A stretch of 58,189 nt of DNA from an uncultured Pseudomonadota bacterium. Lineage in GTDB: Bacteria > Pseudomonadota > Gammaproteobacteria > Methylococcales > Methylomonadaceae. The DNA lies in contig CAINHP010000018.1 in NCBI GenBank assembly GCA_903848905.1, forward strand, positions 1 to 58,189. The letters run 5' to 3'. The notes under the pieces were generated by a model that was given only the letters and a program-made list of their open reading frames with translations, was not told the origin of the DNA and did no database searches. Of the stretch, positions 18,381 through 35,578 are shown in pieces (position 1 is the stretch's first letter; each line of letters opens with the position of its first letter). A program made the translations under genes and the position numbers.

Positions 18381-19229
18381 TTAAACTATTTTACTTAAAA
18401 TACCATTGAGTTCTTCTTGCGTAGTGTAGAAAAAAACCAATTTTCCACTTCCATTTTTTTTACTTTCCACTTTTAGCCTACCGTCAAACTTAAGATCTAA
18501 TTCAGCCTGAAATTGTGTAGTTTGTGTATCAATGCGCGTTGCGTCATCCATCTGATTCGGATTCAATATACCTTTTACTAATTGCTCTGTTAATCGCACC
18601 GACAATCCTTGATTAACTATTTTGCGTGCCACCAAAATTTGCTGTTCTCCAATCAAAGACAGCAATGCTCGCGCATGTCCCATATCCAATTGATTGTTCA
18701 ACAACATTTTCTTTACTTCTGGCTGTAATTCCAGCAAACGCAACAAATTTGTAATCGTGGCTCTTGATTTCCCAACAGCATCTGCAACTTGTTGATGTGT
18801 CATGGTGAATTCTGTTAATAAACGATGCAGCGCCTCTGCTTCTTCTAACGCATTTAAATCTTCTCGCTGGATATTCTCAATCAACGCAATGGCAATAGCG
18901 GTGCGATCATCCATTTCTTTAATAATGACAGGCACATGATGCAAACCGGCAATCTGGGCAGCTCGCCATCTGCGCTCACCAGCTATAATTTCATAGCGCC
19001 CATGTGAAATACCACGGACAATAATAGGCTGAACAATCCCTTGCATCGCAATTGAATTCGCTAGTTCCTGCAGCTTTTCTTGATTTATATCTCTACGCGG
19101 CTGATATTTTCCTCGCTGCAACACGTCTATGGGCAGTGAATGACTTCCCATTTCATCTTTTGATGTAATGGGCATTTCACCCAAGAGCGCATCCAACCCT
19201 CGCCCTAAGCCTCGTTTTTTTACATTCAT
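18381..19229 (-). CDS. parB: Chromosome partitioning protein ParB/Spo0J
   Basis: 282 aa. N-terminal KKRGLGRGLDALL peptide, the ParB box GERRWRAA, and an HTH region. Confidence 0.96.
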   Translation of the reverse strand: MNVKKRGLGRGLDALLGEMPITSKDEMGSHSLPIDVLQRGKYQPRRDINQEKLQELANSIAMQGIVQPIIVRGISHGRYEIIAGERRWRAAQIAGLHHVPVIIKEMDDRTAIAIALIENIQREDLNALEEAEALHRLLTEFTMTHQQVADAVGKSRATITNLLRLLELQPEVKKMLLNNQLDMGHARALLSLIGEQQILVARKIVNQGLSVRLTEQLVKGILNPNQMDDATRIDTQTTQFQAELDLKFDGRLKVESKKNGSGKLVFFYTTQEELNGILSKIV

Positions 19230-19450
19230 GATAATGTTGAGTTATGTGTATTAAAAAAATCGAGTTGTTGAACTAATTGTTCAAATGTATCGAGCAATTG
19301 CTTTAGTTGTTGCGCTTCTAAAAGCAGTTGTTCCTTCTGCTGTACAAGTAAATTTTTTTGTTCAAGTTTTAACGATACGTTTTTTTCACTAGGCACTTCA
19401 CTAAGTAAAGCTTCAAGTCCGCGACCTAAACGTGGTGCTTTAGTTGCCAT
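19226..19450 (-). CDS. Small protein with a ParB-N-terminal-like LGRGLEALL peptide and a coiled-coil-like tail (uncharacterised)
   Basis: MATKAPRLGRGLEALLSE... followed by a Leu/Gln/Glu-rich tail. The ORF track start at 19465 is also possible. It overlaps the parA 3' end and shares ATGA with the parB start. It fills the whole 210-nt parA-parB gap. Confidence 0.55.
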   Translation of the reverse strand: MATKAPRLGRGLEALLSEVPSEKNVSLKLEQKNLLVQQKEQLLLEAQQLKQLLDTFEQLVQQLDFFNTHNSTLS

Positions 19451-20219
19451 TTTCACCTGCCGCATTTGCTAATATTTCTTTTGCTAACGCCATGTAGGCG
19501 ATAGCCCCCCTGGAGCTTTTATCATAATTAAGCACGGGCAAACCATGACTTGGGGCTTCTGCAACACGGATATTACGTGGAATACAAACTTTAAACACAT
19601 CCGTTCCAAAATAACGAATCAACTGTTCAGACACATCTTTTGTTAAACGATTTCTATCGTCAAACATCGTCCGTAAAATACCCTCTAAATGCAATGTTTT
19701 ATTGACCGTACTTTGAATATTTTTCAAAGTATTCATTAACGCTGAAATCCCCTCTAGCGCGTAATATTCGCATTGCATTGGAATAAGCAAACTATTTGCC
19801 GCCACCATCGCATTAAGCGTCAACATATTGAGAGATGGTGGGCAGTCAATAAGTATATAATCATAGTTCGATCTAATTTTTTCTAAGGCATGTGCAAGTC
19901 TTAACTCTTTACGTTCAGCCTGCATCAATTCAACTTCCGCAGCAGTTAAATCCGCATTTCCCGCAATCACATCAAATTTTAACGAAGGCAAATGAATAAC
20001 TGTTTGTGAAGCCTCAACCACTTCCATTAACAAATCATAACCAGAATGCGTAATATCATGCTTATCTATCCCGCACCCCATTGCTGCATTACCTTGCGGA
20101 TCCAAATCTACAAGTAATACTCGCTTTTTTAATGAAGCCAGTGACGCTGCCAGATTAACACTAGTGGTTGTCTTTCCCACGCCACCTTTTTGATTTGTAA
20201 TGGCAATAATTTTTCCCAC
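19440..20219 (-). CDS. parA: Chromosome partitioning ATPase ParA/Soj
   Basis: 259 aa. Deviant Walker A NQKGGVGKTT. Lies in the rsmG-parA-parB context. Confidence 0.96.
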   Translation of the reverse strand: MGKIIAITNQKGGVGKTTTSVNLAASLASLKKRVLLVDLDPQGNAAMGCGIDKHDITHSGYDLLMEVVEASQTVIHLPSLKFDVIAGNADLTAAEVELMQAERKELRLAHALEKIRSNYDYILIDCPPSLNMLTLNAMVAANSLLIPMQCEYYALEGISALMNTLKNIQSTVNKTLHLEGILRTMFDDRNRLTKDVSEQLIRYFGTDVFKVCIPRNIRVAEAPSHGLPVLNYDKSSRGAIAYMALAKEILANAAGENGN

Positions 20220-20235: not shown

Positions 20236-20853
20236 TTAAGAAATTTGTATTTTAACTAAACAACGTTCAGCTTCAATGTGCGGTACGTTAAGCGATATTA
20301 ATGTCGTTTTTGCCTTGATATCTTGCAACTCCTCTTGAGGAATCTGACCTTTCATGCAAAGTAACACGCCATTTTTGTCTAAAACATGTTGCGTTAAATC
20401 AATAATTTCAGGCAAACTCGCAAATGCACGGGTCAGCACCATATCAAATCTATTTTCTATTATAAATTCTTCTATGCGACTATGCGTCACTTTGACATTG
20501 GGTAATTTCAATTCCAATATAGCCTGTTGAACGAAGCGCGTTTTTTTTGCGTTACTATCTATCAATTGAAACTCGATATCTGGCCGACAAATTGCGAGCG
20601 GTATTCCTGGTAAACCTGCCCCAGTGCCAACATCCATAATATGCGACCCTTGCAGGTAAGGCAAAATTGCTAGACTATCAAGTAAATGTAAATTCACCAT
20701 GTCTTTGCGATGGCGAATTGCAGTCAAATTATAGGTTTTATTCCATTTCTCTATTAAATAAATAAATGCCAACAATTTAGATACCATCTCATCGCTAACC
20801 GAAATATTTAGGACGCTCAAACCTTCACATAATAATTTTTCGTCTTGATTCAT
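20236..20853 (-). CDS. rsmG: 16S rRNA m7G527 methyltransferase RsmG (GidB)
   Basis: 205 aa. SAM motif [15 protein letters not shown]. Lies downstream of mnmG. Confidence 0.94.
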
Positions 20854-22721
20854 GCTGCTTTCTTTTTCAAATACACCAACAATAATGAAATAGCCGCAGG
20901 CGTAATTCCTTGCATTCGCGAAGCTTGCCCTAACGTTTCTGGGCGTTGTTTTTGTAATTTCTCAGACACTTCATTTGATAATCCTAACACCGCTTTATAA
21001 TCTAACGTAGTCGGTAATTTCAAATGATCATAACGCAGAGATTTATCTATATCTGCCTGTTGCCGAGTGATATAGCCTTGATATTTCGATTGAATTTCAA
21101 CTTGCTCTGCCACATCATCCGCAAACTCGTGACCATCATCTAAAAACGATAATAAATTTTTAATATCAACTTCTGGTCGACGAAGCAACTCTGTCAGATT
21201 CGCTTCTTTATTTAATGATTTACCCCAAAACTGCTCTACTTTTTGCGCATTTTCAGTATCAGTATGAATCCATTTTTGTTTTAGGTTTTGCTGCAATTTA
21301 TCAATGTTTTCGCGCTTAATTTCAAAAGCCCGCCAACGTTTATCATCCACTAAATTTAATTCACGTCCTTTTTGCGTTAAACGTAAATCCGCATTATCCT
21401 CACGTAAAAGCAAACGATATTCTGCACGACTGGTAAACATTCGATAAGGCTCTTGGGTTCCACGTGTAATTAAATCATCAATCATCACACCAATATACGC
21501 TTCATCTCGACGCGGGCACCACCCTTCAAGACCTTGCGTCAATCGAGCTGCATTTAAACCCGCAATTAAACCTTGCGCAGCAGCTTCTTCATAACCAGTT
21601 GTACCATTAATTTGACCCGCGAAAAATAAACCGTCCAAATGTTTTGACTCAAGTGTCATTTTTAAATCACGAGGATCAAAAAAATCGTATTCAATCGCAT
21701 AACCTGGACGCATAATTTGCGCATTTTCAAATCCTAGCATCGAACGCACAAATTCATATTGCACATCAAAGGGTAAACTTGTTGAGATACCATTTGGATA
21801 AATTTCGTGTGTTGTTAACCCTTCTGGCTCAATAAAAATTTGATGCGAATCGCGATCTGCAAAGCGAACGATTTTATCTTCAATAGAAGGGCAATAGCGT
21901 GGTCCTATACCTTCAATTACGCCAGAGTATAAAGGCGATCTATCAAGACCATTTCGAATAATATCATGGGTTTTTTCATTAGTGCGCGTGATATAACAGG
22001 GTATTTGCTTTGGATGCTGCTCAGCATTGCCTAAAAAAGAAAAAACAGGCACGGGCGTGTCGCCATGCTGTTCTTCTAATACGGAAAAATTAATCGTTCG
22101 CGCGTCAATACGCGGCGGTGTTCCTGTTTTGAGTCGATCAATGCGCAAAGGTAATTCATGTAATCGCGCCGCTAATGCAACAGAAGCAGAGTCACCCGCT
22201 CTCCCACCACTGTAATTTTCAAGGCCAATATGAATTTTGCCCGCCAAAAAAGTTCCCGCTGTCAAAACGACTGATCGCGCCATAAAATCAAGGCCCATCA
22301 AGGTTTTCACGCCAATCACTTGTGATCCCTGAATGATTAAATCAGCAACAGTTTGCTGAAACAACATTAAGTTCGGCTGATTTTCCAATGCGTGGCGAAT
22401 GGCTTGCTTATAAAGCTGACGATCGGCTTGCGCACGGGTTGCTCGAACCGCTGGCCCCTTACTTGCGTTGAGAATACGAAATTGAATACCACCCAAATCA
22501 ATGGCTTGCGCCATAATACCGCCAAGCGCATCAATTTCTTTAACCAAATGCCCTTTGCCAATTCCACCAATTGCAGGGTTGCAACTCATTTGCCCGAGCG
22601 TGTCAATATTTTGAGTCAAAAGCAATGTTTGCGCCCCAGTCCGAGCCGCTGCAAGCGCAGCTTCAGTCCCCGCGTGACCACCACCCACCACAATAACGTC
22701 AAATTCTTTTTTAAATTTCAT
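20850..22721 (-). CDS. mnmG: tRNA uridine 5-carboxymethylaminomethyl modification enzyme MnmG (GidA)
   Basis: 623 aa. FAD motif [12 protein letters not shown]. Confidence 0.97.
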
Positions 22722-33579: not shown

Positions 33580-34377
33580 TCAATCAGGGGCCTTATCGAG
33601 AATTTCAACACTAACTGACATATTTAACGCTAATACGGCAGGGCCAAATTGATTAAAAATAGCGACATCCGTGGCATCACGCCCATACGCTACGCGAACA
33701 CGCCCGCCTTTGGGTTGCTTTTGCGTAGGATCAAATGTGTACCACTGACCACCGACATACGCTTCAAACCATGCATGAAAATCCATCGGTTCAAGTCCGT
33801 GCAGATATCCCACCACCATCCGCGCCGGAATACAAAGTCCACGACAAAGTGCAATACCTAGGTGTGCAAGTTCTCGACAAACTCCTTCGCGTTGCTGATT
33901 CACTTCAACTGCAGATAGTTGAAAATGCGTCGAGTTTGAATTAAAGCGAATGTTTTTCTGTATCCACAATACAATTTCACTGACCTGATCGTAACCCGGT
34001 TTTGCGTCACCCACAATTTCTCGCGCCAAATCAACAAAACGATCAGATTCGCAGTAGCGTGTAGGCAGTAAATACGTTAATACATTGTCGGGCAAATACT
34101 CAATATTTTCAAACGGTGCGCCAGCACATACGTCAATATCCTCTGCCGTTAGAATATCCGATGAAGTATGAATTGAAAAATCACCTGAAGGTGCAATTAA
34201 ACGCTGACAAAGATTCCCGTAGTTATCGGTAAACTCAACCACTGGCACACTAGGTTTGACTGTATAAGATTCACGAGAAACCCACTGCTCAACGCCACTA
34301 CGCGGACGAAGCATGAGTATAAAAGGCGTTTCAATACTGAGTTCAAAAGTCATAATACAGCCGGTTCTAAGCCACAT
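33580..34377 (-). CDS. Transglutaminase-like cysteine protease-fold protein
   Basis: 265 aa. Core motifs [11 protein letters not shown] (Cys), DFHAWFE (His) and TFDPT (Asp). AGGA lies 8 nt upstream of the ATG at 34377. Confidence 0.8.
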
Positions 34378-34439: not shown

Positions 34440-35210
34440 TTATTTTTCCATAAGTGTTATTAGAAGATTTGCAAGTGTTTCAAAATCTTCAGCTCCACGA
34501 CTTTTTGGGGCATAATCACGCACCGGTTTCGCACTTCCAAAGGCTTCTGCTAATTTAATATCACTACGAATACCCCCCAAAACGCGCAAGGTACCAAATT
34601 GACGTGTCATTTGTGAATTGATATCTCGATGTTGACGCACATTACCCGCCACCATCATGGGTAAAAAACCCAAAATTTTAAGCGTCGGATTTTGCTCTGA
34701 TATGATTTTAAATAAAACACGTACTAATTGACGTACCCCCTCAAATGAAAGAGGATGAGGAACATACGGAACGAGCACCCAAGTCCCCGCACATAGGGCA
34801 TTTAAAAGAAGATTATCTAATGAAGGTGGTGTATCAACAATCACTAAGTCAAATTTTTCAGACACCGCGTCTTGGCTCAGCGCCCTTAAAAGTAATTGTT
34901 GATCATGACCACATCTGTCATGCTGAAAAGTCGTATTCGCGGGTAATAATGAAACATTTTCAACAGACGTTTGACGCACACAATCCAAAATAGACCAATT
35001 TGATTCGGTAAACATATCGTGAACAGTCAACTCACCTACATTCACTTTCACCCCCAAACCAACCGCGCAATGCCCTTGCGAATCTAAATCGATAAGCAAC
35101 ACTCGCTGACCAGTAGCGGCAAACTCAGAAGCAAGATTCACCGATACAGTGGTTTTCCCTGCACCACCTTTTCGATTACTAATGACCAAAACGCGAACAC
35201 GCTCTCTCAT
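34440..35210 (-). CDS. Orphan ParA/MinD-family ATPase
   Basis: 256 aa. Deviant Walker A SNRKGGAGKTT with the signature Lys, and the DTPP Walker B region. It is a distinct paralogue of the chromosomal parA at 19.4-20.2 kb. Confidence 0.85.
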   Translation of the reverse strand: MRERVRVLVISNRKGGAGKTTVSVNLASEFAATGQRVLLIDLDSQGHCAVGLGVKVNVGELTVHDMFTESNWSILDCVRQTSVENVSLLPANTTFQHDRCGHDQQLLLRALSQDAVSEKFDLVIVDTPPSLDNLLLNALCAGTWVLVPYVPHPLSFEGVRQLVRVLFKIISEQNPTLKILGFLPMMVAGNVRQHRDINSQMTRQFGTLRVLGGIRSDIKLAEAFGSAKPVRDYAPKSRGAEDFETLANLLITLMEK

Positions 35211-35578
35211 AAATTCAATGTTTCTTGAATCACATCTTGTAGTTGCTGGTGTGTAAAGGGTTTTTGCAAAATACCTTTCACGCCTAACATTTCAGCTGAA
35301 TCTAAATTAAAACCGGCTGTAATTGCCCGTCTACCGCCTGAAATAGCAATAATGGGTAATTCAGGATTCGCATTAAGTAATTCCATAATCACCTCAATTC
35401 CATCTTTATTTGGCATTATGATATCGGTAATAATTAAATCTGGTTTAAATTGATAAAAGCTTCGCACACCCTCTTCACCATCTTGTGCCATGAAAACTTG
35501 ATGACCATCACGTGTTAGCATCTTTTTTAATAAATCACGCAATTGCTCTTCATCGTCAATTACTAATATTTTCGCCAT
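35207..35578 (-). CDS. Single-domain response regulator (CheY-like receiver)
   Basis: 123 aa. Acidic pocket VIDDEE, phospho-acceptor ITD (D52), ISGG (S82) and QKPF (K105). Shares an ATGA overlap with the downstream ParA-like gene. Confidence 0.88.
   Translation of the reverse strand: MAKILVIDDEEQLRDLLKKMLTRDGHQVFMAQDGEEGVRSFYQFKPDLIITDIIMPNKDGIEVIMELLNANPELPIIAISGGRRAITAGFNLDSAEMLGVKGILQKPFTHQQLQDVIQETLNL

Follow-up and report, generated by a model that had tools for sequence, protein, structure and literature searches.

In this study we describe a small gene, here called X ('mini-ParB'), which lies between the chromosomal partition genes parA and parB and is very probably a truncated paralogue of ParB. 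It was found in a 58,189-nt stretch of DNA (contig CAINHP010000018.1 of an uncultured Methylomonadaceae bacterium, positions 1-58189; the window). The genes around it all lie on the minus strand, in the order mnmG (20850-22721), rsmG (20236-20853), parA, X, parB, atpI and atpB, which gives the region the look of an origin-proximal mnmG-rsmG-parAB-atp cluster. The product of parA (19440-20219, minus strand; 259 amino acids, aa) is of the Soj type (Pfam AAA_31 at 6.4e-66, and CbiA) and is the presumed target of X. The parB gene (18381-19229, minus strand) encodes a full-length protein of 282 aa with Pfam matches to ParB_N, HTH_ParB and ParB_C and a TIGR00180 match at 2.5e-59, and is the putative parent paralogue of X. 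The 210 nt between the two genes (19230-19439) are entirely taken up by X, an open reading frame (ORF) that ends at 19226 and could start at 19465 or at 19450, giving 79 or 74 aa and an overlap with the 3' end of parA of 26 or 11 nt. An alignment of 23 homologues shows that the start at 19450, reading MA(T)K, is kept and that the upstream ATG at 19465 is not. X is hence treated here as a gene of 74 aa (19226-19450, minus strand), on the evidence of this conserved start, its position after parA, its substitution pattern and its homology to ParB.

The signals for expression tie X closely to its neighbours. A Shine-Dalgarno (SD)-like hexamer, AGGTGA, complementary to the 3' end of 16S rRNA, stands 2 nt before the start of X, within the 3' end of parA (19453-19458, minus strand). 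No recognisable SD sequence is found in the 25 nt upstream of parB (19230-19254, minus strand; ttaatacacataactcaacattatcATG), and the parB start shares the letters ATGA (19226-19229, minus strand) with the TGA stop of X, a layout that is the same in loci L001-L007. When the minus (coding) strand of X was scanned for σ70-like promoters and terminators none were found, and there was no sign there of a separate promoter for parB. X appears to share a transcript with parA and parB, and in the window clade the translation of parB probably relies on ribosomes that have just finished X (termination-reinitiation). The translational coupling of X and parB that a first-pass annotation of the window had suggested is thus plausible, given the good SD of X and a parB start that sits in the ATGA overlap, and the coordinates, the filling of the gap and the overlaps on which that suggestion was built were all confirmed. 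In the window lineage such coupling would fix the ratio at which X and ParB are produced.

X is a genuine gene under purifying selection and not a chance ORF. A protein search returned 32 clusters of close homologues (53-95% identity, 59-79 aa), all annotated as 'hypothetical', and a search with an X profile among 1.84 billion representative proteins gave 47 clusters at E<=1e-3, nearly all of them small (65-147 aa). A wider profile of the family gave 816 clusters, and X-family members range from 65 to 159 aa. The named carriers include Methylobacter psychrophilus, M. marinus, Methylobacter sp. S3L5C, Methylomonas sp. 11b, MK1 and MO1 (with the proteins WP_020484526 and WP_026602357 for MK1 and 11b), one metagenome-assembled genome (MAG) of Methylovulum and many MAGs of Methylococcales, so that the family is present in several cultured strains; this breadth is judged from the named matches and not from a systematic survey of genomes. 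A scan of the genome collection with patterns specific to the window clade gave only 5 true loci and was unusable for taxonomic prevalence. In all 17 loci that we inspected X lies directly downstream of the chromosomal parA, and in nearly all of them immediately upstream of parB, the exception being L016, where the 2.4 kb that remain between X and the contig end contain no detectable parB. Across the loci examined the ORF is open and alignable, with alignment gaps of whole codons.

The ratio of nonsynonymous to synonymous substitution rates (dN/dS, or ω), estimated pairwise by the Nei-Gojobori method for eight loci of the window clade, was 0.165 for X as a whole, 0.05 for parA and 0.09 for parB. 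Within X it was 0.05 for the N-terminal peptide, 0.20 for the linker and 0.13 for the conserved helix. The first-pass annotation had proposed to look among relatives for conservation, coding constraint and a parA-X-parB arrangement, and on all three counts the outcome favours X. A search of the whole window with the parS consensus TGTTNCACGTGAAACA, allowing up to 2 mismatches, found no site, so the conservation of X is not explained by an embedded parS. In the last 10 codons of X (19226-19255, minus strand) dN (0.66) is higher than dS (0.33), and no constraint at the protein level was seen; this could reflect constraint at the nucleotide level, in the region where translation of parB is initiated, or noise from only 10 codons.

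The most constrained part of X is its N-terminus, MATKAPRLGRGLEALL, which parallels the N-terminus of ParB, MNVKKRGLGRGLDALL, just as the first-pass annotation had noted. Residues 7-16 (19403-19432, minus strand) read RLGRGLEALL and fit the ParA-binding motif LG(R/K)GL as it is given in PMC12462528 and in the passages retrieved from PMC12704722. All residues of this motif are invariant across the alignments of the X family, including the one of 23 homologues. By our own count the X peptide and the N-terminus of Thermus thermophilus Spo0J are identical at 11 of 16 positions. The N-terminal 20-mer of that Spo0J, the subject of work by Leonard et al. in 2005, reportedly stimulates the ATPase of Soj. 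The motif residues that X and ParB have in common (LGRGL.ALL) are written with different codons at 7 of 8 positions in the window, and at 3 to 7 in other genomes. We considered gene conversion between X and the 5' end of parB as a cause of the motif identity, which is ruled out by the 7 differing codons; the differing codons imply that each copy is independently held by selection. The two paralogues also differ in sequence just here, since X consistently has LEALL(V/A)D and 113 of the 120 closest ParBs have LDALLG.

The relation of the rest of X to ParB is less easily seen. Pfam and NCBIfam gave no significant match for the window X, with none to PF02195, HTH_ParB or PF23552, and the homology was found only via family members of intermediate length. 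One of these, the 147-aa protein P0052, is encoded between parA and parB in L011 and is collinear with residues 1-146 of the window ParB (53% identity, BLASTP E 4e-51). Its AlphaFold2 (AF2) model matches the N-domains of ParB, Noc, KorB and PadC, the best match being Caulobacter crescentus ParB-CTPγS (7BM8, E 1.3e-9), and the PadC structure 6RYK is among the structural neighbours of the long-form X. The 147-aa forms still have a Pfam ParB_N match, with all three boxes of the cytidine triphosphate (CTP)-binding fold altered: QPR(R/K) has become LPPD in Box I, GERRW has become GESRW in Box II and ENIQRED has become ETIQKEN in Box III. Family members end at ...EFEAMVRxL, where ParB goes on into its helix-turn-helix (HTH) domain. 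In other members the Srx core is deleted, or swapped for a variable and apparently disordered spacer, and sister lineages, too, differ in length, with 147, 132, 143 and 65 aa in L011-L014. Two modules are kept in all members, namely the N-terminal KKRGLGRGLEALLVDV-type peptide and a C-terminal helix of the form ...IQKE..LLQEAEALK.L.DEFE..V. The window X is among the most reduced forms and consists of the peptide (residues 1-16), a short linker and one long helix.

Aligned with hhalign, the X family profile matches residues 96-142 of the window ParB (probability 98.9, E 1e-17), a region made up of a Box III remnant and the 'EEAxAL..L..EF' helix. Against C. crescentus ParB (6T1F/7BM8) the profile covers residues 1-17 and about 113-150, the latter being helices α3-α4 (E 1.8e-7). 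In the collinear alignment neither X nor ParB varies at the α4 signature residues E-A...L..L..EF, and by these comparisons the core of the X helix (residues 27-57; 19280-19372, minus strand) is homologous to ParB α3-α4. With collinear segments that point to common descent in the BLASTP, hhalign and PDB profile comparisons, we regard it as very likely that X is a real, selected and truncated paralogue of ParB. On this reading a tandem duplication of parB placed the first of the two copies right behind parA. This copy lost everything from the HTH domain onwards, and X is thus without DNA-binding and C-terminal dimerisation domains. The CTP-binding boxes of X have decayed, and in many lineages, that of the window included, the ParB/Srx core has been deleted. 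Of the four modules that define ParB the window X keeps the ParA-binding motif, and three are missing: the ParB/Srx CTPase fold with Boxes I-III, whose core is deleted, the HTH that recognises parS and the C-terminal dimerisation domain PF23552. For this reason X should not be annotated as ParB.

The first-pass annotation had read X as a ParA-binding motif without a parS-binding module, and this holds, for the motif is intact and no DNA-binding or CTP-binding module was detected. It had further described X as a mimic of the ParB N-terminus followed by what looks like a coiled coil; the view of a convergent mimic with an unrelated coiled coil gives way to that of a truncated tandem duplicate of ParB in the light of P0052, the hhalign result and the collinear alignment. 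Its statement that X has neither HTH nor ParB box is right for the HTH and needs refining for the box, since the helix, a homologue of α3-α4, retains the Box III remnant. The remainder, which it had likened to a coiled coil, is predicted to be a long helix with heptad periodicity and is actually the α3-α4 segment of ParB. The predicted amphipathic helix spans residues 22-73 (19232-19387, minus strand; AF2 and heptad analysis), with a mean predicted local distance difference test score (pLDDT) of 79.8 and values above 90 over residues ~31-65. Eight of 12 a/d positions are hydrophobic (L35 L42 L49 F56 L63 / L52 L59 F66), and AF2 draws α3-α4 as a single continuous helix in short and long X. In the open clamp of ParB, α3 and α4 of one subunit are bundled together; the binding of CTP makes α3 swing outwards, through 101°, and pack against α4' of the other subunit, which closes the N-gate (Jalal et al. 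2021, PMC8367383).

A natural exchange of the N-terminal peptide is found in a lineage without X, known from two independent assemblies: L010 (2247-3888) and a separate 4.1-kb contig with the 99%-identical protein P0193. Here ParB begins with MASKPSRLGRGLEALLGD..., an X-type N-terminus that overlaps the end of parA and is fused straight to the ParB linker. We asked if L010 might show the ancestral, unduplicated state; this is ruled out by its nesting within the X-bearing clade in the ParA tree and in the ParB tree alike. The nesting shows instead a secondary deletion between the two repeats that encode LGRGL, which produced a chimeric ParB, and the same chimera on an independent contig makes an assembly artefact unlikely. 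The chimera implies that the X peptide can serve as the ParA-interaction motif of ParB.

What, then, might X do? According to Schnabel et al. 2025 (PMC12462528) each ParA dimer has two sites for ParB peptides; single peptides and open ParB dimers stimulate ParA weakly, and closed clamps, which juxtapose two peptides, stimulate it strongly, so that activation is normally confined to partition complexes. Taking all the evidence together we lean slightly towards the view that X is a translated, selected, truncated ParB paralogue that acts as a parS- and CTP-independent modulator of ParA. Since X would be unable to bind parS or CTP, it presumably acts in trans. Its peptide would dock in the ParB-binding pocket of ATP-bound ParA dimers; what speaks for such binding, and for an effect on the ATPase, is the intact motif and the natural peptide swap in L010 and the P0193 contig. 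Through its helix X may associate with itself or with ParB and so bring two peptides side by side. As an oligomer X would offer paired peptides constitutively and would be a diffusible activator that lowers the amount of nucleoid-bound ParA-ATP; as a monomer it would compete weakly with ParB. Either way it would set how much ParA-ATP is left on the nucleoid, independently of the centromere. A bolder version, which we put forward only tentatively, makes X a 'closed-gate mimic': by swapping its α3-α4-derived helices X would dimerise constitutively or form a heterodimer with ParB, and the dimer would hold two juxtaposed peptides without CTP, parS or DNA clamping. This would be a three-component Par system, in which a diffusible mini-ParB sets the global turnover of ParA-ATP or gates the closure of the ParB clamp and full-length ParB is the localised sink.

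Several observations weigh against the main explanation as a whole, that of a selected paralogue of ParB that modulates ParA. The dN/dS ratios rest on pairs of which many are near saturation at synonymous sites (the least saturated pair, the window and L004, has a dS of 0.9 and an ω of 0.155), and the AF2 models come from monomer-only runs, which by default return a single long helix. In the window clade the α3 half of the helix has diverged strongly, and good conservation is limited to α4 and a C-terminal extension specific to the clade. The lineage that lost X is apparently viable, hence X is dispensable at least there. Methylobacter-type loci have ~110 nt between X and parB, and there it is parA and X that overlap instead (ATGA), so the coupling to parB is lineage-specific and not universal. 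The main rival explanation is that X acts mainly on ParB: its helix might exchange with α3 or α4 of ParB and cap or destabilise the CTP-dependent N-gate, or it might supply open ParB with a further ParA-binding peptide, and in this way adjust how the clamp closes or slides, or how stimulatory partition complexes are. We consider this unlikely as the principal role, even though the only conserved module of X besides the peptide is the very helix pair that swaps between ParB subunits when the gate closes, the α4 signature is invariant in both proteins and, in the window lineage, the two come from coupled cistrons. It leaves unexplained why the peptide is the most constrained part of X, and the poor conservation of the α3 half in the window clade speaks against it as well. 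The ParA-directed and the gate-directed explanations are compatible and not mutually exclusive.

It seems improbable that X is a non-functional relic of the parB duplication, with its ORF kept only as a leader or upstream ORF that brings ribosomes to the parB start. Three things would suit such a relic: in the window clade parB has no SD and its start overlaps the stop of X, the central part of X is decaying and very variable in length, and one lineage has lost X. A leader ORF, however, needs no specific residues, and from Methylomonas to the window lineage peptide and helix are conserved as protein while synonymous sites have diverged; X is conserved even where the ~110-nt spacer precedes parB. 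With this conservation at the amino-acid level an explanation as a pure relic or leader ORF does not fit. Least probable of all is that X is an adaptor in the manner of McdB or PomX, which would link a non-chromosomal cargo to a ParA-type ATPase, perhaps to the orphan ParA-like protein that the first-pass annotation had placed ~15 kb away and that is indeed encoded at 34440-35210. X is built like the small ATPase-activating adaptors, in which an activating peptide at the N-terminus is followed by a disordered linker and then a coiled coil, and the orphan gene is there as a possible partner. In the loci inspected, however, X always follows the chromosomal parA immediately and is nowhere accompanied by cargo genes; the peptide it carries is the canonical motif of chromosomal ParB, and no cargo-binding domain was detected in X. 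The orphan ATPase sits in a receiver-ATPase-transglutaminase cluster of its own. For the adaptor role that the first-pass annotation had raised, whether towards a different cargo or towards the orphan ParA, we thus found no evidence, X being tied to the chromosomal parA and the orphan lying in its own operon with a receiver-like ORF.

A ParA-modulating mini-ParB would have relatives among known proteins without belonging to any of their classes. X is homologous by descent to ParB/Spo0J (TIGR00180; PF02195 + PF17762 + PF23552), shares its LG(R/K)GL motif and its α3-α4 helix, and in the long members of the family still has the ParB/Srx fold. It differs in that it has no HTH with which to bind parS and no C-terminal dimerisation domain, its CTP boxes are degenerate or deleted, and at 74 aa against 282 aa it could not form a DNA clamp. 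Noc, the nucleoid occlusion protein of Firmicutes, shares with X an origin in a duplication of the chromosomal parB and its retention beside the par locus. Noc, however, keeps the full ParB architecture and the CTP switch and has lost the ParA-binding motif, as described in the passages retrieved from PMC12704722; X has kept the opposite set and is not a member of Noc. PadC of Myxococcus xanthus is, according to the same passages (PMC12704722), a ParB/Srx protein that does not bind parS and engages ParA away from the centromere, as is proposed here for X. PadC differs from X in binding CTP, in having a bactofilin-binding domain and in not being encoded between parA and parB; X has no CTP motifs and no recognisable anchoring domain. 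Nor is the family PadC-like in its architecture, as the window X has no Srx core, the long forms have degenerate CTP motifs and no extra domain is present.

McdB, the N-terminal peptide of PomX and the tails of ParG/ω follow the same principle of a flexible N-terminal activating peptide on an oligomerising helical part. They are analogous to X and not homologous, and they are tied to cargo (carboxysome, division complex, plasmid centromere), whereas X has no evident cargo. McdB has its gene next to those for its own McdA-type ATPase and for its cargo, the carboxysome, and in McdB the C-terminal cargo-binding region has an invariant Trp; X contains no Trp and adjoins the chromosomal parA and then parB (L016 excepted), which sets it apart from McdB-like proteins. 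Synthetic N-terminal peptides of ParB and open ParB dimers likewise present the motif detached from parS and CTP, and stimulate ParA weakly unless juxtaposed (PMC12462528). X differs from such peptides in being natural, genome-encoded and conserved, and in bringing its own putative pairing helix. The literature we searched gave no description of the X family. Nor is the family mentioned in the passages that we retrieved by keyword from a recent survey of the ParB-CTPase fold (PMC12704722), which deals with orphan ParBs and ParA-binding motifs.

Were the closed-gate mimic real, the chromosomal Par system of Methylobacter, Methylomonas, Methylovulum and their uncultured relatives would have three components. 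In current models ParA is activated only at partition complexes, because two ParB peptides need CTP- and parS-dependent clamp closure to meet. X would be a natural third player, either by uncoupling the activation of ParA from the centromere or by feeding back on the ParB gate, and it might serve as a minimal natural reagent for the 'juxtaposition' model. X also offers a clear case of paralogue evolution by domain loss, the mirror image of Noc, and hundreds of 'hypothetical proteins' of methanotrophs merit re-annotation.

Some further observations concern the second ParA-like gene and the surroundings of the par locus. The second ATPase is a ParA/MinD-like protein of 256 aa, encoded on the minus strand, with the Walker A motif 'NRKGGAGKTT' and a Pfam AAA_31 match at 1.5e-38, and it scores under every NCBIfam cut-off. 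The start of its gene and the stop of a 123-aa ORF (35207-35578, minus strand) overlap, and by eye this ORF has the look of a CheY-type receiver. The ATPase gene is followed by a transglutaminase-like gene (33580-34377, minus strand); no ParB-like partner lies beside it. Toxin-antitoxin genes of the HicA/HicB type adjoin the par locus in two lineages (L016:3001-5649 and L017:3427-3857), and in L016 they stand, together with a gene for a T5orf172-domain protein, directly after X. Upstream of the partition genes, mnmG stands before rsmG in the window, L011, L014, L016 and L017, and an ORF of 505 aa takes this place in L002, L003 and L010, with weak matches to DUF87/TrwB-like ATPases in L002 and L003. 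These differing genes upstream of rsmG indicate that the origin-proximal gene order is not fixed in the group to which the window belongs.

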